36,620 nucleotides of DNA from a virus. The position numbers were made by a program, and so were the translations under genes. Position 1 is the first letter of the stretch, and each line of letters starts with the position of its first letter. This document shows positions 9,814-23,030 of this stretch, piece after piece. The stretch is from the IMG/VR virus record IMGVR_UViG_3300045988_182864, one strand, 5' to 3'. The notes beneath the pieces were generated by a model. That model was not told the DNA's origin and made no database searches. It was given only the letters and a program-made list of their open reading frames with translations.

Positions 9814-9889
9814 TGGTGCTCCCGGCTGGAATCGAACCAGCGACACATAGGGCTTCAACCTACTGCTCTACCAACTGAGCTACAGAAGC
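9814..9889 (-). tRNA. tRNA-Phe: tRNA-Phe(GAA)
   Basis: GCTTCTGTAGCTCAGTTGGTAGAGC..., anticodon loop TTGAAGC, T-arm GCTGG-TTCGATT-CCAGC, ACCA end. Confidence 0.9.
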
Positions 9890-9892
9890 AGA

Positions 9893-9969
9893 TGGTGACC
9901 GAAATGGGGCTTGAACCCATACTCTCAAGCTTGAAGGGCTTGCGACTTAACCAATTCGTCTATTCGGCC
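9893..9969 (-). tRNA. tRNA-Glu: tRNA-Glu(TTC) with C33 (anticodon loop CCTTCAA)
   Basis: Acceptor GGCCGAA/TTCGGTC, A73, CCA, T-arm ATGGG-TTCAAGC-CCCAT, anticodon stem CAAGC/GCTTG. Confidence 0.75.
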
Positions 9970-9997
9970 ATATAGCCGCAATCCTGCGGCGAGTGGG

Positions 9998-10219
9998 TTA
10001 TGCGATGACGAGGATGTCATCGATTTTCGTATCGAGCATCGCGGCGAGAATTACAAGATTGTCGATGGTAGGAAGTGCTGTGCCTGCCTGCCATTTGGCT
10101 ACCGCCTGCGTGGATACACCGAGCGTATCCGCCACATCCTTGACCTTGATGCCTGCCGCCTTACGCAGTGCCTTAATATTGGCACCCGTCTGCACAATAT
10201 CGATAGTTGGAACATTCAT
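9998..10219 (-). CDS. XRE-family helix-turn-helix transcriptional regulator, 73 aa
   Basis: IKALRKAAGIKVKDVADTLGVSTQAVAKWQAGTALPTIDNLVILAAML is a canonical Cro/CI-type HTH. Start taken at MNVPTID. Confidence 0.8.
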   Translation of the reverse strand: MNVPTIDIVQTGANIKALRKAAGIKVKDVADTLGVSTQAVAKWQAGTALPTIDNLVILAAMLDTKIDDILVIA

Positions 10220-10309
10220 TTTCTTTCGCTGCCTTTCTGTATTGCAGGCAACAAAAAAACGCTGCCTGCCGAAATGAATCGACAAGCAGCGTTCGGAATG
10301 CAAATGCCG

Positions 10310-12077: not shown

Positions 12078-12217
12078 TGCAATTGCTTTGTCTGAGTCAG
12101 TTATTGTCGGTTACCTCCGTTCTGTGATTCCACAACCCAATCGCGTCCTGTTCGTTTTTATGAGGGGTATTTATTATTTTTGGTTGGATTTCTTACAAAA
12201 ATTGGCGGTCTACTAAT

Positions 12218-13756
12218 TTATGTAAATACAATCCCTTCGTTTTTGGCAACAAACTTACATTTACCAGATGAATACGAGTTGCCGTTTGTGTCGTAATATC
12301 CATCTGCCTGACCGTTGTGCGAGCTACTGGTTCCTTGCATCACATGAGTATGCTTGCCAACAAGAAACACACAGCCGGGAAAGTTGCGTTTTGGATTTCG
12401 ATATTCCGGATGATGCTCTTTTACCTTGAGTTTGTAAACGTCATCGGGATGGTTTTGACGAAACTCTTCCAAGCTGTCGGTGGTCTGTTTAATGGCTTTA
12501 TGTCGATTTGTAGCAACTGCCTTATCATTAAGCGTATACACACGGCTCATATTTGCTTTATGCAGTGCTCTTCTATCATGACGGCGGAACTGTTTAAGTT
12601 CATACGGCACACGATTGTTGATGCCGCTATCGCAAACATCATTTGGTAAAACAGAACAAGCGATACAATAAGCATCGAGCCAATGGTCTTTGCTTACACC
12701 GTGCGCTGCACGGTAATCGTAGGTGCTCTTTCCCGTTGTTACGAAAAAGTGCTTTGGAAAAAGAGTGTTTAATCTTTCCGTTAACGCGGGAATGATTTGA
12801 TTTAGCACACTTTGCGCACCGTATTTTTTATTGAGTCCGGTTTTCTTTTTGGCAAGCTTCTTTTGCCATGTAGTATCTTTATGCACAAGGTCGTGGTGTT
12901 TTGTGCATAAGCCAACGATGTTATCAATGGTGTTGCTGCCGTTTTCGGATTGCGGTACTACATGATGATAATGGGCGATAGGCTTCTTGCAAAACAAGCA
13001 ATGGCGTTCCTGCATTTCAGAGACAGCTTCTTCAAGGCTTGCTTTTTGATAGAGCGGGCCTTGCTGATATTGCCATTTCTGAACATTGGGATTATCCAGC
13101 CGCATAAACGCAAATTTATTGACTTCCAACACAACATCACTGATAGGAAGAAACTTCCGAATCTTCTTTACCAAGTTAATGTGTGTCTGCAACAACTGAT
13201 TTGCGGTGGGCGTAAGCCAGCCTTCCGGTCTTGTGCGATTGCTAAACTTTGCTTCTTTGTTCTTGATGCCGATACAAAGGACTTCTTTCTCGCAACCCGG
13301 AAGATGGCGCTTGATGACACCAATCTCCTTTGCACGCTTGCTGACGCTGCCATTTTGAGCTGTGGCTTGCTTTACGCATTTCTTGGAAATGGTGTCATTG
13401 GCTTTAGCTCTACGTTGACGGCGGCAGCGTCTGCCGTTGGTGCGTCTTGCGCGGCGAGAGTCTTTGCGCTTTTTCATCAACTTGGGAATTTCCTTATTGC
13501 GAGTTTCCAGATGTGCAGTAAAGACTGCCGTGCCGTCCGTTTTAACAACAGCAACGCCGATATTGGTTCTGCCGGGGTCGATGCCTAAGTAAAGCGGCTG
13601 CACTACATCGTTGGTTTCATACAACAGTTGAATGGTAAATGGTTTTGATGCTACGACTCGCGCTTTCTTCTCTTTCAGAAGGTAGCGGATATGACCACAG
13701 CGAGTCGTAGGCATTAAAGGTTTACCGTTTTTATTAAGCACATACACAGTGGACAT
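12218..13756 (-). CDS. iscB: IscB (OMEGA system RNA-guided nuclease: PLMP, split RuvC, Arg-rich bridge helix and HNH), 512 aa
   Basis: VYVLNKNGKPLMP (PLMP domain). LGIDPGRTNIG (RuvC-I). RRARRTNGRRCRRQRRA (bridge helix). VVLEVNKF (RuvC-II). CLFCKKPIAHYHHVVPQSENGSNTIDNIVGLCTKHHDLVH (HNH). KDHWLDAYC (RuvC-III). True start MSTVYV with RBS aaaggaggtggcgtat-ATG. Confidence 0.85.
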   Translation of the reverse strand: MSTVYVLNKNGKPLMPTTRCGHIRYLLKEKKARVVASKPFTIQLLYETNDVVQPLYLGIDPGRTNIGVAVVKTDGTAVFTAHLETRNKEIPKLMKKRKDSRRARRTNGRRCRRQRRAKANDTISKKCVKQATAQNGSVSKRAKEIGVIKRHLPGCEKEVLCIGIKNKEAKFSNRTRPEGWLTPTANQLLQTHINLVKKIRKFLPISDVVLEVNKFAFMRLDNPNVQKWQYQQGPLYQKASLEEAVSEMQERHCLFCKKPIAHYHHVVPQSENGSNTIDNIVGLCTKHHDLVHKDTTWQKKLAKKKTGLNKKYGAQSVLNQIIPALTERLNTLFPKHFFVTTGKSTYDYRAAHGVSKDHWLDAYCIACSVLPNDVCDSGINNRVPYELKQFRRHDRRALHKANMSRVYTLNDKAVATNRHKAIKQTTDSLEEFRQNHPDDVYKLKVKEHHPEYRNPKRNFPGCVFLVGKHTHVMQGTSSSHNGQADGYYDTNGNSYSSGKCKFVAKNEGIVFT

Positions 13757-13977
13757 ATACGCCACCTCCTTTATGATAAGTCTCCCCTGCCGAAGCAGGA
13801 GGTTGTGTTTCCCTTGGCTGGGTGTTTGCTGCAAGTGACATTACACGAGGCAATACCACTCTTGCGGAGCTATCAACTGGGAAAATCGATAGGCGCAACA
13901 AACATCCATGTGCCTGTGATACTTATGAAATTAAGTGATTTTATTCAAACCACCAAATTTCGTAAATACCCATTTTC
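13757..13977 (-). ncRNA. candidate omegaRNA (HEARO-type) of IscB; 5' boundary and guide not resolved
   Basis: A 221-nt non-coding gap sits directly 5' of iscB on the same strand. Stems include CCUCCUGC-UUCG-GCAGGGG (7 bp with a UUCG tetraloop, 13780-13801) and CUAUCGA...UUGAUAG (7 bp). The position matches the known omegaRNA location. Confidence 0.55.
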
Positions 13978-15966: not shown

Positions 15967-16677
15967 TCAAGGCTTGCTCTCTGCGGGTGCTGGCGTCCAG
16001 TATAAGAGCGTTCCGAGGATATCGCACATCGGTGCCGCCTCGAAGAAGCAAAGTGTTTCCAGAGCGTCTCTGAGGCGCTGCTCGTAGTCTGTGCGCTGCA
16101 TATCAAGGGGAACCAGCACCTTGTAGGAGCCGAAAGGCGCTTTCAGAACGGGAGATTCGGATGTCTGGTTCTCAGAAAGGTCACTCTCCCAGCCGCAGGT
16201 AACGAGATAGTCATACAGAGCATAGGGGTTTACAGCAGAGACCGTCTTTCTGCCATCAAGCATCTTGTAGGCACGGAGATACTTGGCTTCTCGTGCAAGG
16301 TCTTTGCTTGTGAGAGGATACGGGATTCGGTTAAGGTCCATGTTGCTGACGAGGTCTGCGCGTTTTACCTTGACGGCAATGTCGTTTTGCTTAACACGCC
16401 AGATATACTCTGAGTAGGTCATATCTTTTTCCCGAGTCAGTACAGAGACCGCCTCAGCCACTTTCTGAGGAAATTCCGCTCTGATGGTATCTATCGTGGT
16501 GCCGGTATCTTCCACCGTGTCGTGCAGGTAGGCGGCAGTTTTCACCAGCGGGTCAGGCTCAACGCCGTCTGCGACAACGGCCACATGCGCCGTGAAGTAG
16601 TCTTCCCCTGCCTTGTCGGTCTGGCCCTTGTGCGCCATCATAGCGAACGCCTTTGCTTTTTCAATGTAATCAATCAT
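15967..16677 (-). CDS. HD-domain protein, RelA/SpoT-type (p)ppGpp hydrolase-like N-terminal domain, 236 aa
   Basis: AMMAHKGQTDKAGEDYFTAHV...AAYLHDTVEDT carries the H...HD...ED signature of SpoT-like hydrolases. Start MIDYIEK with RBS aaaggtgatacga. Confidence 0.65.
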   Translation of the reverse strand: MIDYIEKAKAFAMMAHKGQTDKAGEDYFTAHVAVVADGVEPDPLVKTAAYLHDTVEDTGTTIDTIRAEFPQKVAEAVSVLTREKDMTYSEYIWRVKQNDIAVKVKRADLVSNMDLNRIPYPLTSKDLAREAKYLRAYKMLDGRKTVSAVNPYALYDYLVTCGWESDLSENQTSESPVLKAPFGSYKVLVPLDMQRTDYEQRLRDALETLCFFEAAPMCDILGTLLYWTPAPAESKP

Positions 16678-16728
16678 TCGTATCACCTTTCTTTGTTTCG
16701 CAAGCAGCACCATGCGGGTCTGCCAGAC

Positions 16729-16813: not shown

Positions 16814-19771
16814 TTACTCCGCAGCGCCCTCAACGATTACGACCTCAGCCTCGGTTTCCTTAGGCATGTCGGCATCTTCCTGCTTGGTGTCGGTGCTGTC
16901 CTCGGAAGTCTCGGCAGACTTCTCGGTCTCAGCGGACTCAACAGGAGCGGCAGGCTCGGCGGGAGTCTCAGCAGGTATAGCGGGCTCAACAGGAGCAACG
17001 GGCTCGGCAGGAGTTTCAGCAGGTACAGCAGACTCAACCGGAGTCTCTGCGACATAGGTTTCGGCGTTGATGCTCTCGGCGCTCATTTCCTGCGCCGGAA
17101 CCTCGACAACAGGCTCAGCCCCGGCTACGATAGGGTTTGCAGCCACCTTGGCACTTGCGGGCAGACGAGCGATGGACTCAGTCTTGGTCTCGCCGCAGCC
17201 AGTGCAAGTGTAGGTCTTGACACCCTCATGCTCAGTGGTAGGCTCGGTGGTAACGACACCGTTATCCCAAGTATGGTCTTTCTTGGGCGTGGTAGAGAGA
17301 ACGGTGCTCACTTCACCGCAGACGGTGCAGTAGATTTCGGTGCGACCCTCTTCCTTGCAGGTAGGCTCAATGACACGCATCTCGGCATGGTGACCGGTGG
17401 AGTGTACAATGTTGTCCTTGTAGGAGAAGCTGTCATCTTCGTTGCACTTGTGCATCGTGTAGCCGTCCTCGGTGCAAGTCGGCGGGACAACGGTAACAGT
17501 GAAGGTGTACTTGGTGGGCAGGACCTTTTCGGTCATGGTCGCATCGCAGTTCTTGCAGTGCAGGGTCTTGACGCCGTACTCGTCATGCGTGGGCTGGGTA
17601 GTGATGACACCCTCATCCCAGATATGACCAGTACCACCATAGGAGTAGGTCATGGTATGGGAAGCATCGCGCTTGCAGTGCATCAGCATAGTGCCCGGCT
17701 CGGTGCAGGTAGCCTTTTTCAGGCATTCGGTGTGCTCGAAGTCCCAGTCGTGGCTGCCGATAGCGGGCATAGGAACGAGAATTTTGCTGTCGCAGCCATC
17801 ATTGGTGCAGTACATCCAACGCTCGCCCTCAGTCTCACAAGAGGGCTCCTTGACGATTTCACCGAGACCCGTGTACTCATGGACATGGACCTTGGCAATG
17901 CTCTCGGTCTTGGTCTTGTTGCAGACGGTGCAGGTATAGGTCTTGATGCCCGGCTCGGTGGCAGTAGGCTCCTTGGTGATAACGCCCTCGTCCCACTGAT
18001 GCTCCTCATTGACGGGGATATCGCGGACATGCTGCTTATCGTTGCAGCGCTCACAGACCTTATCTACACTGCCAGCGTCCTTGCAGGTGGCGGGAGTAGT
18101 GACTTCCTTGTACTCATGACCCAGCGCAGGGACGATGTTGTCCTTGAAGGACTTGGTGGCATCTTCCACGCACTCGTGCATGGTATAGCCGTCCTCAGTG
18201 CAGGTAGGAGCGACCACGGTCTCGTTGTAGGTGTAACCCAGAGCCGGAATGCTCTCGGTGTAGGTATCACCACAGTTGTGGCAGGTGAAGGTCTTGACAC
18301 CGTTCTCGGTGTAGGTAGGCTCGGTGGTCACAACGCCGTCATCGTAATCGTGACCGGTTGCGGGGATGACCTCGGTGTAGGTATGGTTCTTGTCGTTCTG
18401 GCAAGTGAAGGTCTTGACGCCATCCTCAGTGCAGGTAGCAGCCTTGGTGACAACGCCGTCATCGTAGTTATGACCCAGCGCGGCAATCTCCTCGGTCTTA
18501 GTCTCGGTGCAGCCATCGTTCAGGCACTTGTAGGTCTTCACGCCGGAAGCCTCACAGGTAGCGGGCGTGGTGACAGTACCATCATCCCACTTGTGACCCA
18601 CAGCCGGGATGACCTCAGTCTTGGTCGCGCCGTCACGAGAGCAGGTAAAGGTCTTGACGCCATCCTCAGTGCAGGTAGCAGCCTTGGTGACGACACCCTC
18701 GCCCCAATCATGGTCCAGAGCGTCCACGAAATCGCGGTTCTCGGTCAGCGTAGCGTCCTGGTCGCAGATGTAGACGGTGTAGCCCTGCTCAGTGCAGGTG
18801 GGAGCAACCGTATCACCCTTGTGCCAAGTCTTCTCCACCATCGGGATATCCTCGGTATAGGTATCACCGCAAGCAGAGCAGGTAAAGGTCTTGACGCCCT
18901 TCTCGTAGATGGTCGCTTCCTTGGTCACGACACCCTCATCATAGGTGTGCGGGGTCTTGTCGGTGAAATTGCCCTTGTAAGTAAGACCCGGAACCTCATT
19001 GCACTCATAGATGGTATAGCCCTCAGAAGTGCAGGTGGGAGCAACGACCTGCAGGATGTGGTAGGTCTTGTCCAGAGAAGGAATCTCCTCAGTACGGGTC
19101 TCACCGCAATCCTTGCACTTGAAGGTCTTGATGCCGGTCTCGGTGTAGGTGGCAGCTTTCGTCACAGTGCCGTTATCCCAGCTATGCCCCTTGGCGGCAA
19201 CATAGTTGTCGTTGTAGTTCATACCGCCCCACTCGTTGCAGATATGCTCATCATAGCCCTGCGTGGTGCAGGTGGCGTCATGATGGCGCACGGTGAAGGT
19301 GTAGACGGGCTGAGACTTCTTCTCGGCAGGAGCGGCAGCGGGAGTCACAGCAGCAGGCTTCTGGGCAGGAGTCTTGGTGCCGGTGGTGGTTTTATGGGTG
19401 TTGTAGACGGGAGCCTTGGCGGGACCGTCCTTAGTAGAAACATTGTCGGGGTTCGTGTTCTGGCTGGCGGCGGGCTTCTCAGCCTTGTCGGAAGCGGCCT
19501 CAGACTCAGCGGTCTTGTTCTCGGTGTTGGCAGCATCGGAATTGGGCTTGCTCTCAGCCTTGCTCTCGGACGCCGCCGCGCTGGTATCTTCCTTCTCGGC
19601 AGTGTCAGGGGTTTCGGACTGTGCGGTGCTTGCGGAATCGCTCAGGCTGGTGGAAGGAGCAGAAGAGGCAGCATCCTGATTCTTCTTGCCCTTACATCCG
19701 GTAACAGAGATTGCGACTGTAGCAGCCATGGCAACTGCAAGCACATTCTTCATCATAGACTTTTTGCGCAT
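16814..19771 (-). CDS. large secreted lipoprotein with about 20 tandem Cys-containing repeats and P/A/E-rich termini, 985 aa
   Basis: Signal peptide with lipobox AISVTG-C. Repeats of the form GHxWDxGVVTKxATCTEDGVKTFTCxxCGxTxTExIPA. Near-identical DNA repeats, e.g. 18400-18455 versus 18640-18695. RBS aaaaggagaagtaaaatc-ATG. Confidence 0.8.
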   Translation of the reverse strand: MRKKSMMKNVLAVAMAATVAISVTGCKGKKNQDAASSAPSTSLSDSASTAQSETPDTAEKEDTSAAASESKAESKPNSDAANTENKTAESEAASDKAEKPAASQNTNPDNVSTKDGPAKAPVYNTHKTTTGTKTPAQKPAAVTPAAAPAEKKSQPVYTFTVRHHDATCTTQGYDEHICNEWGGMNYNDNYVAAKGHSWDNGTVTKAATYTETGIKTFKCKDCGETRTEEIPSLDKTYHILQVVAPTCTSEGYTIYECNEVPGLTYKGNFTDKTPHTYDEGVVTKEATIYEKGVKTFTCSACGDTYTEDIPMVEKTWHKGDTVAPTCTEQGYTVYICDQDATLTENRDFVDALDHDWGEGVVTKAATCTEDGVKTFTCSRDGATKTEVIPAVGHKWDDGTVTTPATCEASGVKTYKCLNDGCTETKTEEIAALGHNYDDGVVTKAATCTEDGVKTFTCQNDKNHTYTEVIPATGHDYDDGVVTTEPTYTENGVKTFTCHNCGDTYTESIPALGYTYNETVVAPTCTEDGYTMHECVEDATKSFKDNIVPALGHEYKEVTTPATCKDAGSVDKVCERCNDKQHVRDIPVNEEHQWDEGVITKEPTATEPGIKTYTCTVCNKTKTESIAKVHVHEYTGLGEIVKEPSCETEGERWMYCTNDGCDSKILVPMPAIGSHDWDFEHTECLKKATCTEPGTMLMHCKRDASHTMTYSYGGTGHIWDEGVITTQPTHDEYGVKTLHCKNCDATMTEKVLPTKYTFTVTVVPPTCTEDGYTMHKCNEDDSFSYKDNIVHSTGHHAEMRVIEPTCKEEGRTEIYCTVCGEVSTVLSTTPKKDHTWDNGVVTTEPTTEHEGVKTYTCTGCGETKTESIARLPASAKVAANPIVAGAEPVVEVPAQEMSAESINAETYVAETPVESAVPAETPAEPVAPVEPAIPAETPAEPAAPVESAETEKSAETSEDSTDTKQEDADMPKETEAEVVIVEGAAE

Positions 19772-20138: not shown

Positions 20139-20179
20139 AAGAATCAGAGAGTGTTAGCCGCAGAAATCTGCGTTGCCCG

Positions 20180-20214
20180 CCATCTACCGCGTGGAGGTCG
20201 CTCTCAAAAGATGG
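20180..20214 (-). repeat. Conserved hairpin motif, copy 1 (plus-strand loop ACCGCGTGGAGG; minus-strand CCUCCACGCGG)
   Basis: Stem ccatct/agatgg, preceded by gttgccc. Confidence 0.6.
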
Positions 20215-20446
20215 CTGACGAGACGAATTTGTCTCGCCCATGCCGCAGCCGTTTTCGCCACTCGGCATGGTGTTTTCGGCTTGACGTAACCCTGTGTAAA
20301 TGACCCTCAGGTGGGGGCGGTGCGGGCAGGATTATCGTCTTCGTGGTGTAGTTAAGGAGTACCGCACCAAATAAATGACCGTACTGCGCTTGTGTAACAG
20401 TACAATGCACGCCCAGAGACGATTTCCAAGATGGAGATGTGTCTGG

Positions 20447-20549: not shown

Positions 20550-20933
20550 TTACGCATAGTGAAGTTCGCCGTACTGTTTGACCTCGCGCTCCAGATGCAG
20601 CGGAATGGTCTTGGCGCTTTTCTGCGTGATATCCTCACGCGTCAGAAGGCGCTCATCGACGCCAGCTGCCTGCAGAACTTCGTACAGGTTCGAGGGACCG
20701 GTGCCGTCGTAACCCGCAGTTAAGCCATTGACCTGCAAAGCGAAGCCGTGCAGATGCGGTGCCAGACCCGGTACAAAATCGAGTTCAACAACGACTTCGT
20801 TACTGTTCTCGTCCACGCGCTTAACCGAGAGAGCACGGATGTTCTGACTTCCGAAGGCCTCAATCAGCTTCTTAGCCGCCGCTGCGGTTTCAATCGTTGA
20901 TGTGCCTTCGACATTGATAATCGCCTGCTCCAT
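20550..20933 (-). CDS. hypothetical protein, 127 aa, the only convincing CDS inside the RNA island
   Basis: RBS ggaaggag 9 nt before the ATG (MEQAIINVEG). Ordinary amino-acid composition. Confidence 0.6.
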   Translation of the reverse strand: MEQAIINVEGTSTIETAAAAKKLIEAFGSQNIRALSVKRVDENSNEVVVELDFVPGLAPHLHGFALQVNGLTAGYDGTGPSNLYEVLQAAGVDERLLTREDITQKSAKTIPLHLEREVKQYGELHYA

Positions 20934-21134
20934 CGGAATCATCTCCTTCCTACTTAGAGTTGTCATGCGCTATAGCAGATAACGCTCTGCCGTGCGGGGC
21001 TTTACGTTGCCCATTCGTGTTCGGTTCCGGCTACGACGACTTCCGTAAGGACTTAGCCAACCGTCAGCAAGTGCATGCCCCCGCTGACAGCTTCTTGGGC
21101 GGATTCTCAAAGAGCGCGTCACCCAATCGGACCG

Positions 21135-21210
21135 TGGAGCTTGATGGCAGACTCGAACTGCCGACCTGCGCGTTACGAATGCGCTGCTCTACCAACTGAG
21201 CTAACCAAGC
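21135..21210 (-). tRNA. tRNA-Thr: tRNA-Thr(CGT)
   Basis: GCTTGGTTAGCTCAGTTGGTAGAGC..., anticodon loop TTCGTAA, T-arm GGCAG-TTCGAGT-CTGCC, TCCA end. Confidence 0.85.
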
Positions 21211-21484
21211 ACGGTAGGGTGTTTTATGCTGGTTATCACCCCTCAGCGAGGAAGCCAACCTCGCGTCCAGCACCATCCGGTAGCAACCCCGGAGGATTCT
21301 GCGCTGTATCCTCTCCGATGTTTTTCAGCACCATTCGCGACTGATGCCGAGACTTTCGGATACCTTCAGGTGCAGCACCTGTTTGCCGATTCTTTTTTGA
21401 CTGTCCATTGGCAATTCGGACAGCGGACCACATGTGGACCATGTTCGCCAATTTTAATGTCGTGGCGTACGGTGACGGCGACGG

Positions 21485-21559
21485 TGGAGCGGGCAGCGGG
21501 ATTCGAACCCGCGTGACCAGCTTGGAAGGCTAGTGTATTAACCCCTATACGATGCCTGC
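21485..21559 (-). tRNA. tRNA-Gly: tRNA-Gly(TCC)
   Basis: Acceptor GCAGGCA/TGCCCGC (A3:C70 mismatch), U73, CCA, anticodon loop CTTCCAA, T-arm GCGGG-TTCGAAT-CCCGC. Confidence 0.85.
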
Positions 21560-22272
21560 ATGAGAAAAAGCGGGTGAACCCTCTCTTAGCCCCGCCATGA
21601 TGTCCGTTTAGTAGGTCGTCATCCCCGAAACATCATCTTTGTGCCTCTTAGCGATTCCGCGAATCTCTGCGTGGACGATACGAAAGAATCCGGAAAAGCA
21701 TTTTAGACACTGGTCAACTTCAATTCAAGCCCTGCCGTTACTTCCCTGTCAATTCGGGTCAACGGATTGTTACGGGCTGTGTAAGACTGCGGCAAACTTA
21801 CCAGATGCCGCGCAGCAGTCTCGCCTTTTTCGGCTATGTCGCGTCTGGCTGCGCCCCGGCTTAACGGGGATGCTCGTACGATGCATGCTTAGCGGGACGA
21901 GATTTGTTGTTTCTGCGCCGAAGCACAAGAGGAAGCACTCGCCCACACAGCTTCCTGACCGTTTAGGATACCGCTTGCACAGGGAATGCAATGCGGTTCC
22001 TGAAAGGACATTCGTCAGCGGCAATCATAGTCGCTGTCCACCACCCGCCGCGTGGAGGCTGTCCCATCGGGTGGCTGAGTGCGCCGAGGTATGGACGCAC
22101 TCAGATAGGCGCTACCTATTATGGTGTTTTAAGGCGGGAGCTGCCCGCCATCAGGTAAATCAGTACATCGGTGTGACCCTTTCCTTGATTTTGACATTCG
22201 GACGCGGTAATTACTGCATCGGAGTGCCCTCCCTGTTTTATTTGACCTGTTAGAATCGCTTCCAACAGGTCA
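21560..22272 (-). ncRNA. about 710-nt ORF-poor, hairpin-dense segment between tRNA genes; candidate large structured RNA (class unknown; ROOL/GOLLD-like context)
   Basis: More than 10 local or long-range stems read by eye. Examples: agactgc(ggc)...(gcc)gcgcagcagtct, ggaagc/gcttcc, accgc-ttgca...tgcaa-gcggt, ctgagtgcg/cgcactcag, ggcggg-agct-cccgcc, acctgtt/aacaggt. The ORFs present are Cys/Arg/Trp-rich and lack an RBS. Confidence 0.5.
22041..22074 (-). repeat. Conserved hairpin motif, copy 2 (loop GCCGCGTGGAGG)
   Basis: Stem ccaccc/gggtgg, inside the long non-coding segment. Confidence 0.6.
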
Positions 22273-22363
22273 TGGCTCTGGCAGGTGGAGTTGAACCACC
22301 TTTTCCCGTGCGCTGCGGGCGAATTAACCATGGTGCATTGCAACCTTCGTATTCGATACCAGA
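22273..22363 (-). ncRNA. tRNA-like element: canonical acceptor stem, T-arm and CCA, but aberrant D and anticodon regions
   Basis: Acceptor TCTGGTA/TGCCAGA, G73, CCA, T-arm GGTGG-TTCAACT-CCACC. The 5-bp stem CGAAT/ATTCG encloses a 26-nt insert. The short arm CCCG-CAGCGCA-CGGG has A at position 33. Confidence 0.5.
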
Positions 22364-22430
22364 ATATTTCGGTCATTTTACGTCCGACCGATTGACATGA
22401 ATAGCCGGTTTAACGTCATGGCATGGACGA

Positions 22431-22505
22431 TGGGTGCGGAGACAGGACTTGAACCTGCAACCGCCAGCGTATGGGGCTGGTAAGCTACCTTTGCTATACT
22501 CCGCG
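22431..22505 (-). tRNA. tRNA-Met-type: tRNA with CAT anticodon (Met, fMet or Ile2 type) with C33 (loop CCCATAC) and a C1xA72 mismatch
   Basis: Acceptor CGCGGAG/CTCCGCA, C73, CCA, anticodon stem CCAGC/GCTGG, T-arm GCAGG-TTCAAGT-CCTGT. Confidence 0.75.
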
Positions 22506-22581
22506 TGGCGGGTCGTACTGGGTTCGAACCAGCGACGCTCGGATTAACAGTCCGATGCTCTACCGACTGAGCTAACGACCC
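22506..22581 (-). tRNA. tRNA-Asn: tRNA-Asn(GTT)
   Basis: GGGTCGTTAGCTCAGTCGGTAGAGC..., anticodon loop CTGTTAA, T-arm GCTGG-TTCGAAC-CCAGT, GCCA end. It abuts the previous tRNA with no spacer. Confidence 0.9.
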
Positions 22582-22628
22582 AAGAAAAAAGACATTCGCC
22601 ACGGGGAGCTCAATACCCGTGTTACCGC

Positions 22629-22660
22629 CGCTCGCCGCGAGGAGGCTGTCTTTATGAGCG
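22629..22660 (-). repeat. Conserved hairpin motif, copy 3 (loop GCCGCGAGGAGG)
   Basis: Stem cgctc/gagcg, preceded by gttaccg. Confidence 0.55.
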
Positions 22661-22842
22661 ACAACTCTTATGGGATACCAGATACGATGCTTGCCGCTGC
22701 TCTACAACCAGCCGCAAGCGGATGTGTATGTAAGTGTGTGTAAAACTATGATGTTGTTTCGGAGCGTATCTGGTATCTTTTAAGAGTTTTATGTTATCTG
22801 CGAAGATGTTCGCCAAGCTAAGGGAGGTTAAGCTTGTTGCCC

Positions 22843-23002: not shown

Positions 23003-23030
23003 ATTATCTGCAATTCGCATATTTTGTCAA
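23003..23030 (-). promoter_or_regulatory. Family 1 promoter TTGACA-16-GATAAT with TGCGAA spacer element, upstream of the RNA island
   Basis: -35 at 23025-23030, TGCGAA at 23014-23019 (plus strand ttcgca), -10 at 23003-23008. Confidence 0.65.

Follow-up and report, generated by a model that had tools for sequence, protein, structure and literature searches.

A large, conserved, structured non-coding RNA with a putative ribozyme at its 5' end in the tRNA array of large human-gut phages

What does a phage encode in some 700 nucleotides (nt) of hairpin-dense DNA that lie inside its tRNA array? This question is raised by positions 21,560 to 22,272 of the virus record IMGVR_UViG_3300045988_182864 (IMG/VR). 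The record was analysed over its full length of 36,620 nt, referred to below as the window, and represents phage DNA, with genes for HNH endonucleases, Mor-like regulators, an AAA ATPase and a tape-measure-like domain. An initial annotation, made from the letters alone, had proposed a single large RNA of about 710 nt flanked by tRNAs, related to ROOL or GOLLD or else belonging to a new class. We find that the region is a large, conserved, structured non-coding RNA. Our preferred interpretation, with a probability of roughly 0.6, is that its minus-strand part running from 22075 to 21560 is a non-coding RNA, stable and highly structured, that represents a hitherto undescribed class in large human-gut phages. 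The segment and its immediate surroundings are composed as follows, in the 5' to 3' direction of the minus strand:

23003 to 23030, minus strand: promoter-like site TTGACA-16-GATAAT (11 of 12 matches; a consensus match only)
22273 to 22363, minus strand: tRNA-like element forming the 5' flank, with its CCA abutting the right end of the segment at 22272
22076 to 22272, minus strand: upstream hairpin-rich RNA of 197 nt, varying between clades
22243 to 22272, 22133 to 22149, 22105 to 22119 and 22076 to 22103, minus strand: hairpins of the upstream RNA, the last one terminal
22005 to 22075, minus strand: putative hepatitis delta virus (HDV)-like self-cleaving ribozyme of the Faecalibacterium prausnitzii type with a P4 hairpin, recognised by below-threshold RF02682 and RF00094 matches and a compensated P1
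21891 to 22004, minus strand: accessory domain of 114 nt with three hairpins, delimited by the alignments of relatives
21890 to 21568, minus strand: core of 323 nt, present in every full-length relative and ending about 10 nt before tRNA-Gly
21560 to 21569, minus strand: linker of 10 nt, the 5' leader of tRNA-Gly by its position relative to that tRNA
21485 to 21559, minus strand: tRNA-Gly (UCC), abutting the left end of the segment and following the RNA in nearly all relatives examined

The RNA has the sense of the minus strand. All 14 tRNAs of the window, its four HDV-like ribozymes, the neighbouring genes and most genes overall are located on this strand, and since the tRNAs and neighbouring genes all run this way, the hairpin-rich segment is to be read in the same direction. 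The pairing fits this choice, as the helices comprise 150 G.U cells against 59 A.C cells when read on the minus strand. The promoter-like site precedes the first tRNA of this block by about 50 nt and is, by its sequence, the likely start of a polycistronic transcript carrying the RNA. Between this site and the RNA, no terminator-like site was found except for one match inside tRNA-Thr.

Of the two flanking tRNAs that had been proposed, the left one is indeed a tRNA, namely tRNA-Gly, and the setting in a tRNA array was correctly recognised; the right flank is a tRNA-like element that tRNA finders miss. It is called neither by ARAGORN nor by the Rfam tRNA model, and relaxed ARAGORN settings yield implausible calls only. 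The element comprises a 7-bp acceptor stem (UCUGGUA/UGCCAGA), a T arm (GGUGG-UUCAACU-CCACC), a discriminator G and an encoded CCA. Its non-canonical D and anticodon region includes a stem of 4 bp closing a loop of 7 nt (CAGCGCA or UUGCGCA). Among relatives, the acceptor stem, the T stem and this 4-bp stem all show compensatory changes. The T arm of tRNA-Gly, on the other side of the segment, is replaced in one relative (L091).

The segment is more strongly folded than expected by chance. None of 20 dinucleotide-preserving shuffles folds as well as the entire 713 nt, whose z-score is -3.46 for the minus strand and -3.37 for the plus strand; the 197-nt upstream part (z = -4.84) and the 516-nt part consisting of ribozyme and core (z = -2.27) are also better folded than their shuffles. 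Five helices had been named in the initial annotation, and each of them is present in its place. They had been read on the plus strand, so the helices hold and the strand does not:

21786 to 21825, read on the plus strand: helix agactgc-ggc / gcc-gcgcagcagtct, which is H4/H4b of the core model described below
21971 to 21997, read on the plus strand: helix accgc-ttgca / tgcaa-gcggt
22077 to 22105, read on the plus strand: helix ctgagtgcg / cgcactcag
22134 to 22150, read on the plus strand: helix ggcggg-agct-cccgcc
22246 to 22270, read on the plus strand: helix acctgtt / aacaggt

An open reading frame (ORF) of 204 amino acids (aa) on the plus strand, whose translation would speak against an RNA, is present as described and carries no sign of coding. 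Variable sites among relatives are distributed over its three codon positions as 51/104, 50/103 and 56/102, which amounts to no codon periodicity, up to 15 frame-breaking indel events separate relatives from the window, and no Pfam family matches the ORF. The region is therefore non-coding; it displays neither the kept frame nor the excess of third-position substitutions by which a protein gene is recognised.

The 713 nt do not form one RNA. The large structured RNA of the initial annotation stands, yet the segment is a composite: at its predicted cut, the ribozyme would separate an upstream RNA of 197 nt from a ribozyme-capped RNA of 516 nt. In covariance-model alignments of this ribozyme, P1, P3 and P4 (a hairpin of about 24 nt) can be placed, with 28.1 bits for RF02682 (gathering score 44) and 27.3 bits for RF00094 (gathering score 50) over 22075 to 22005, both below threshold. 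The orthologous ribozyme scores between 26.5 and 38 bits in the seven relatives scanned, and 34–38 bits in four of them. An HDV-like L3 (CCUCC.CGCGG) is present, and the C in ..GAC-GAAUG.. (compare GGC-GAAUG in HDV) can be read from the sequence as the C of J4/2, which places the putative catalytic residue at 22014. The 7-bp P1 starts at the G of the cleavage site and occurs in four or five versions among relatives, all of which are complementary: GCCACCC/GGGUGGU (or ..C), ACUGCUC/GAGCAGU, GCCGCUC/GAGCGGU and GCUGCUC/GAGCAGU. P2 (GGGACA/UGUCCU) is predicted with covariation by RNAalifold, and P1.1 is read from the sequence only. The element thus resembles the HDV-like (drz) ribozymes, including RF02682, in its 7-bp P1 from G1, P2, P3/L3, P4 and a C in J4/2. 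By this anatomy, 22075 to 22005 would be an HDV-like self-cleaving ribozyme with a predicted cut between A22076 and G22075. A long-range pairing between P1 and a 3' hairpin, proposed by RNAalifold, was discarded as it is lost in clades with a different P1.

HDV-like ribozymes in phage tRNA arrays have been described as theta ribozymes, which are minimal, lack P4 and are cleaved no more than 5 nt from the 3' end of a tRNA (PMC10879173). The present ribozyme has in common with them that it is HDV-like and lies in the tRNA array of a gut phage. However, it contains a P4 hairpin and caps a large non-tRNA RNA away from any tRNA 3' end: the cut is positioned 197 nt after the tRNA-like element in the window, and 68 nt after tRNA-Thr in another clade. 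Because of its P4 hairpin and its position, it is not a theta ribozyme. The same study reports hundreds of ribozymes which lie within non-coding regions and lack an association with tRNAs, leaving their function open (PMC10879173); the present ribozyme sequence was not found in its supplements.

The upstream RNA and the accessory domain are the more variable parts. The terminal hairpin of the upstream RNA (22076 to 22103) stops exactly at the ribozyme cleavage site. Further upstream, a module of about 55 nt (GGGNACNCCGAUGNA...) is arranged in tandem over 22152 to 22235 on the minus strand, with two copies in the window and three in some close relatives (upstream pieces of L206, L158 and L180 were examined). 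Stems of the upstream RNA are compensated, as GAGUGCG/CGCACUC becomes GAGUACG/CGUACUC and GGCGGG/CCCGCC becomes GACGGG/CCCGUC. Distant clades retain this RNA only partly. The accessory domain occurs in the clade of the window and several others and is absent in the L216/L226 clade, where the ribozyme directly abuts the core. It covaries too, with UUGCA/UGCAA changing to UCACA/UGUGA and three covarying pairs in a 6-bp hairpin.

Common to all clades are only the last 323 nt and the ribozyme. This core is organised as follows:

21774 to 21890, minus strand: 5' domain, a series of hairpins H0–H4b and the 5' strand of H5, nearly invariant
21711 to 21773, minus strand: rest of the H5 stem-loop (H5 spanning 21728 to 21778) and the conserved junction UUGAAGUUGACC
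21570 to 21710, minus strand: 3' domain, in which H8 encloses H9–H11, followed by H12 and the terminal hairpin H13
21674 to 21678 (UCGUC) with 21616 to 21620 (GACGA), minus strand: loop-loop pseudoknot with two of its five pairs compensated

Covariation, the absence of which the initial annotation had named as fatal to its RNA, supports the helices. RNAalifold predicts 97 pairs from 68 sequences, 23 of them with compensatory changes. A core model of 83 pairs with one pseudoknot was evaluated on 38 representatives against controls in which the 3' partners were slid by 1–3 columns. Paired cells make up 97.1% in the model versus 32–44% in the slid controls, and compensatory changes are found in 23 model pairs versus 3–7. 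In 500 shuffles, the values found for pairing, covariation score and number of compensated pairs were never attained. As the model was derived from the same sequences, partly from the RNAalifold consensus and partly by eye, both controls lean its way, with the compensatory-pair count being a more independent measure than the fraction of paired cells. Compensated pairs are located in H8 (4/5), H9–H11 (9/17) and H12 (4/10). The pseudoknot changes from C-G to A-U, and one variant is doubly compensated. A brute-force covariation scan yielded too many chance matches over few independent clades.

The 5' domain stands out by its conservation. Its identity to the window is 86–93%, compared to about 75% for the adjacent tRNA-Gly and 74–88% for the neighbouring protein gene in the same clades. 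As it is more conserved than the neighbouring tRNA and gene, selection appears to act on its primary sequence. The domain opens with the clustered palindromes GCAUGC, AUGCAU and CGUACG, and three of the four 6-nt palindromes of the RNA sit in the first 16 nt of the core. A duplex of two copies of this 5' end is computed at -21.2 kcal/mol versus 2 x -3.3 kcal/mol for the separate copies, which suggests a lead towards self-association and nothing beyond a lead. Elsewhere in the core, the inner hairpins H6/H7 of H5 are swapped for an unrelated hairpin in one clade; replaceable inner hairpins are typical of peripheral elements in structured RNAs. Two further candidate motifs were rejected: the internal-loop sequence ACCUCCU, which resembles an anti-Shine-Dalgarno, is not conserved and reads CCUACU in the window, and an 8-nt complementarity of the CUGGUAAG loop to a segment of 16S rRNA is within chance expectation.

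The carriers are large human-gut phages, and the RNA was found on phage-like contigs only. Two flanking proteins used as baits retrieved 125 viral-contig loci, all with the region, and a conserved 39-nt motif retrieved at least 120 further ones. The core occurs in 245 of the 245 viral-contig loci fetched, with one copy each, and no paralogues of it were found. A scan of metagenome contigs with a 19-base motif returned 120 loci, 115 of which contain the RNA; the five partial ones comprise two with an internal deletion and three at a contig end. Human-gut assemblies are the source of nearly all these metagenome loci, whose contigs measure up to about 280 kb, and IMG/VR contigs are as long as 389 kb. 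The 96 distinct core sequences form 39 clusters at 99% identity and seven at 90%. A DNA search of 50,697 cultured-phage records gave tRNA matches only, and two conserved core motifs had no match in 185,579 species-representative genomes. Judged by these two motifs, the RNA is thus not a host housekeeping RNA and is unseen in the prophages of those genomes, and the Firmicutes prophage context of the initial annotation was not borne out. The reach towards distant relatives by means of divergent copies of the small protein ended at contig ends.

Known families do not account for the RNA. Searches with Rfam at gathering score over the whole window, and at E<=10 over 21100 to 22700 and seven relatives from several clades, detected only tRNAs and HDV-like ribozymes. 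The models for ROOL, GOLLD, OLE, RNase P RNA (bacterial A and B, archaeal, nuclear), transfer-messenger RNA (tmRNA), HEARO, riboswitches and T-boxes had no match in the RNA. These included all the models by which the initial annotation would have recognised a known class, and its alternative of a new class survives. ARAGORN found no tmRNA in the window and one elsewhere in relatives; a comparison of the core with the tmRNA of relatives returned short chance matches only, and the core has no similarity to tRNA or tmRNA. No description of the RNA was found in a full-text literature search.

The nearest comparison is with GOLLD and ROOL, which are found in phage DNA beside tRNA genes and are probably co-transcribed with them (PMC5737381). 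The present RNA shares this location as a large structured non-coding RNA in a phage tRNA context. A second likeness may be self-association, which was shown for GOLLD and ROOL by cryo-electron microscopy (cryo-EM) (PMC12286853) and is here suggested by palindromes only. In contrast, there is no similarity to either in sequence or covariance model, and the RNA is smaller (a core of 323 nt, 400–516 nt with the ribozyme). For ROOL, a length of 581 nt, six multistem junctions, three pseudoknots and only a small number of highly conserved nucleotides have been described (PMC5737381), whereas the present RNA consists of serial hairpins, one enclosed three-helix domain, one kissing pseudoknot and a very conserved 5' domain. 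Moreover, an HDV-like ribozyme is built into its 5' end, and two conserved motifs of its core are absent from species-representative bacterial genomes.

From this arrangement a route of biogenesis can be proposed, in which the ribozyme and RNase P steps draw on established ribozyme and tRNA-processing biochemistry. The tRNA array would be transcribed as one polycistronic precursor including the RNA. The HDV-like ribozyme would then cut at its own 5' end and free the upstream RNA, leaving a 2',3'-cyclic phosphate on the latter and a 5'-OH on the ribozyme-capped downstream RNA, to which it would stay attached as a compact 5' cap. RNase P, by cutting between 21560 and 21559 at the 5' end of tRNA-Gly, would define the 3' end of the RNA a few nt after H13. 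The product would have a length of about 516 nt in this phage; reduced to the minimal form, ribozyme plus 323-nt core, it would measure about 400 nt. With its compact 5' ribozyme bearing a 5'-OH and its 3' hairpin, it should resist exonucleases. The 197-nt upstream RNA would be a separate, more variable hairpin RNA whose 3' end results from the same ribozyme cut.

Precedents exist for parts of this scheme. In R2-type retrotransposon RNAs, a 5' HDV-like ribozyme frees the functional RNA from a co-transcript and stays as its 5' structure (cf. PMC11331408). The likeness lies in the ribozyme-made 5' end and the retained ribozyme; the difference is that R2-type RNAs belong to eukaryotic, protein-coding retroelements, whereas here a phage non-coding RNA would have its 3' end set by a tRNA. 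The tRNA cluster of phage T4 yields two stable RNAs, 'species 1' and 'species 2', of about 120–140 nt, without ribozyme and with no assigned function. They are likewise non-tRNA RNAs inside a phage tRNA cluster that are co-transcribed and processed with the tRNAs, and we know of no sequence relation between them and the present RNA.

As for function, our best guess by analogy is a trans-acting scaffold made together with the phage tRNAs, which would be functionally comparable to GOLLD and ROOL and unrelated to them. Such a scaffold would bind a conserved protein or RNA partner by its invariant 5' domain, as the invariance suggests a conserved partner, or would self-associate by its palindromic 5' end. 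A more ambitious version, which we regard as unlikely, would have the core be a functional RNA machine, either an RNA-only complex nucleated by the palindromes or a large ribozyme of a new type that has tRNAs or other RNAs as its substrates during infection, with the HDV-like ribozyme as its biogenesis and stabilising cap.

The remainder of the array and the genes around it contribute the following features:

22877 to 22800, minus strand: fourth HDV-like ribozyme (RF02682, 37 bits, below gathering score; unreported at default thresholds)
22663 to 22799, minus strand: long interrupted hairpin RNA of about 137 nt between two ribozymes
22662 to 22588, minus strand: HDV-type ribozyme called at Rfam gathering score
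20215 to 20145, minus strand: HDV-type ribozyme called at Rfam gathering score, the only other one in the window to reach it
20550 to 20966, minus strand: sole ORF inside the tRNA array, started by most gene callers at M12 to give 127 aa (20550 to 20933), always syntenic with the RNA
12218 to 13834, minus strand: ORF for an IscB RNA-guided endonuclease (NF040563, 236 bits) with RRXRR and HNH domains

The start of the fourth ribozyme coincides with the 3' end of tRNA-Thr(UGU), as in the theta arrangement. Together with the hairpin RNA that follows it (both spanning 22877 to 22663, fold z = -7.2), it would be freed as a second ribozyme-capped RNA, the 3' end being cut by the ribozyme at 22662, so that the arrangement would recur in the same array. 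The ribozymes at 22662, 22075 and 20215 all have their cut directly after a terminal hairpin. Those at 22588 to 22662 and 20145 to 20215 are situated 6 nt upstream of tRNA-Asn and tRNA-Ser, respectively. This order of ribozyme, then tRNA, is the reverse of the published arrangement at tRNA 3' ends and is seen in relatives as well (L181: ribozyme at 71 to 151, tRNA at 156 to 228). The 231-nt non-coding spacer from 20216 to 20446 (minus strand; z = -3.66) ends in a hairpin at the cleavage site of the 20215 ribozyme and may be another ribozyme-terminated RNA.

The 127-aa protein is a candidate partner of the RNA. Its only relatives are close ones, sequence searches of Pfam, PHROG, NCBIfam and PDB gave no match, and the structure predicted by AlphaFold is too poor to use (predicted local distance difference test score, pLDDT, of 52). 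The IscB gene is carried by a mobile insertion of about 1.8 kb (12165 to 13975, minus strand), for which two relatives have clean empty sites (L205, L194) and three others have the insertion at other positions (L119, L316, L365); models for HEARO and omega RNAs have no match in the roughly 140 nt upstream of IscB. Downstream of the array, a number of relatives (L088 at 9884 to 10283, L097, L108, L121, L091 and L092) carry a phage-encoded tmRNA (tag DNNRYASPIAA) and about 20 tRNAs. The window has in place of this region a 985-aa Cys-rich, repetitive protein with a lipoprotein-like N-terminus (16814 to 19771). Near the tRNA region, an HD-domain phosphohydrolase (15967 to 16713, minus strand) resembles the hydrolase part of RelA/SpoT and may, by this resemblance, degrade (p)ppGpp.

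Several observations count against the interpretation as a stable RNA of a new class. Support comes from sequence and fold prediction, the RNA being known from genome sequences. The ribozyme remains below the Rfam gathering cut-off (28 versus 44 bits). The helices of the 5' domain are invariant, so covariation is silent on them and they depend on energy prediction, and the idea of dimerisation leans on palindromes that never vary. The diversity is narrow (seven clusters at 90% identity) and mosaic, by which the shuffle statistics overstate independence. The candidate partner, the co-transcribed 127-aa protein, lacks annotated relatives and is modelled at the low pLDDT given above. Finally, two different deletion variants occur in nature. 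In a lineage on contigs of about 241 kb, seen in several assemblies, three quarters of the RNA are missing, and with them tRNA-Gly, tRNA-Thr(CGT) and the beginning of the gene that follows. Around its nt 85 the core is fused to about codon 20 of that gene by a GCTGCA microhomology, from which gene callers predict a chimeric 152-aa protein (P0057, P0058). The second, different variant is found in L296. The deletion variants are located as follows:

L318, from about 1182 onward, reverse strand: deletion variant
L366, 4050 to 4156: deletion variant
L296, 6412 to 6491: deletion variant

Given these natural deletion lineages, the RNA is probably dispensable, at least under some conditions.

The alternatives have to be weighed against the same evidence. 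The RNA could be a cis-acting processing or regulatory leader whose structure serves only the expression or maturation of tRNA-Gly, for instance as a spacer that times RNase P, or controls the ribozyme. The RNA is invariably located immediately upstream of tRNA-Gly, separated from it by some 10 nt of linker, the core looks as if inserted between a ribozyme and its tRNA when compared to the other array ribozymes 6 nt upstream of their tRNAs, and one deletion lineage has lost the RNA and tRNA-Gly together. Nonetheless, the array's other tRNAs do without such a leader, and 323–516 nt with a 5' domain more conserved than the tRNA itself go far beyond what a leader requires. The predicted long-range pairing of P1 with the 3' hairpin is not kept across P1 variants, and neither riboswitch nor T-box models match. 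We consider a leader an unlikely explanation.

A somewhat less probable alternative is that the segment is decayed filler of the tRNA array, made of functionless remnants of tRNAs, ribozymes and repeats and conserved by recent ancestry and recombination. A degenerate tRNA-like element, copy-variable modules and four ribozymes in the array are in keeping with such decay, as are the narrow, mosaic phage group with its deletion variants and the H13 stem, which equals the T stem of the adjacent tRNA-Gly. Speaking against decay are multiple independent compensatory changes, including those in a tertiary loop-loop contact, and a 5' domain whose evolution is slower than that of the adjacent tRNA and protein gene. 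Likewise, the core is found as a single copy in every fetched viral-contig locus and has no tRNA or tmRNA similarity.

That the RNA is a divergent member of ROOL or GOLLD, as the initial annotation had surmised, is very improbable. The setting is the same (phage DNA, beside tRNAs, probably co-transcribed; PMC5737381) and the size is of the same order, but no match to either model was obtained at E<=10, be it in the window or in the seven relatives. Furthermore, the published junction and pseudoknot layout of ROOL and its low conservation (PMC5737381) disagree with serial hairpins, one pseudoknot and high conservation. Still less credible is an element whose hairpins act in DNA, for instance in a replication origin or a packaging site. 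Such an element would suit a non-coding segment with repeats whose two strands fold about equally well, but would leave unexplained the excess of G.U over A.C cells (150 versus 59), the embedded ribozyme with its compensated P1 and the location inside a transcribed tRNA array. The chance that the segment provides the omega RNA for the IscB encoded at a distance of 8 kb, or codes for protein through the 204-aa plus-strand or an 84-aa minus-strand ORF, is negligible: an IscB gene without a detected adjacent HEARO-type RNA and the presence of ORFs invite the thought, yet an omega RNA is ruled out by the mobility of IscB, which is elsewhere or absent in relatives that keep the RNA in fixed synteny, and by the lack of a HEARO match, and coding by the lack of codon periodicity, the many frame-breaking indels and the lack of a Pfam match.

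A stable, ribozyme-capped RNA of a class of its own thus remains our preferred interpretation. It is of a known kind in being a large phage RNA associated with a tRNA array, and it is new in its unrelated fold and its putatively ribozyme-made 5' end. Large, strongly conserved RNAs are rare in bacteria and phages, and several of them proved to be ribozymes, cores of ribonucleoproteins or RNA-only assemblies; the present one would add a new class from large human-gut phages, small enough for structure probing and cryo-EM. Its layout of ribozyme, RNA and tRNA would be a natural counterpart of engineered designs that release defined RNAs from longer transcripts. For the HDV-like ribozymes of gut phages that are not adjacent to tRNAs (PMC10879173), it would provide a concrete job, namely the making and capping of the 5' end of a large non-coding RNA.

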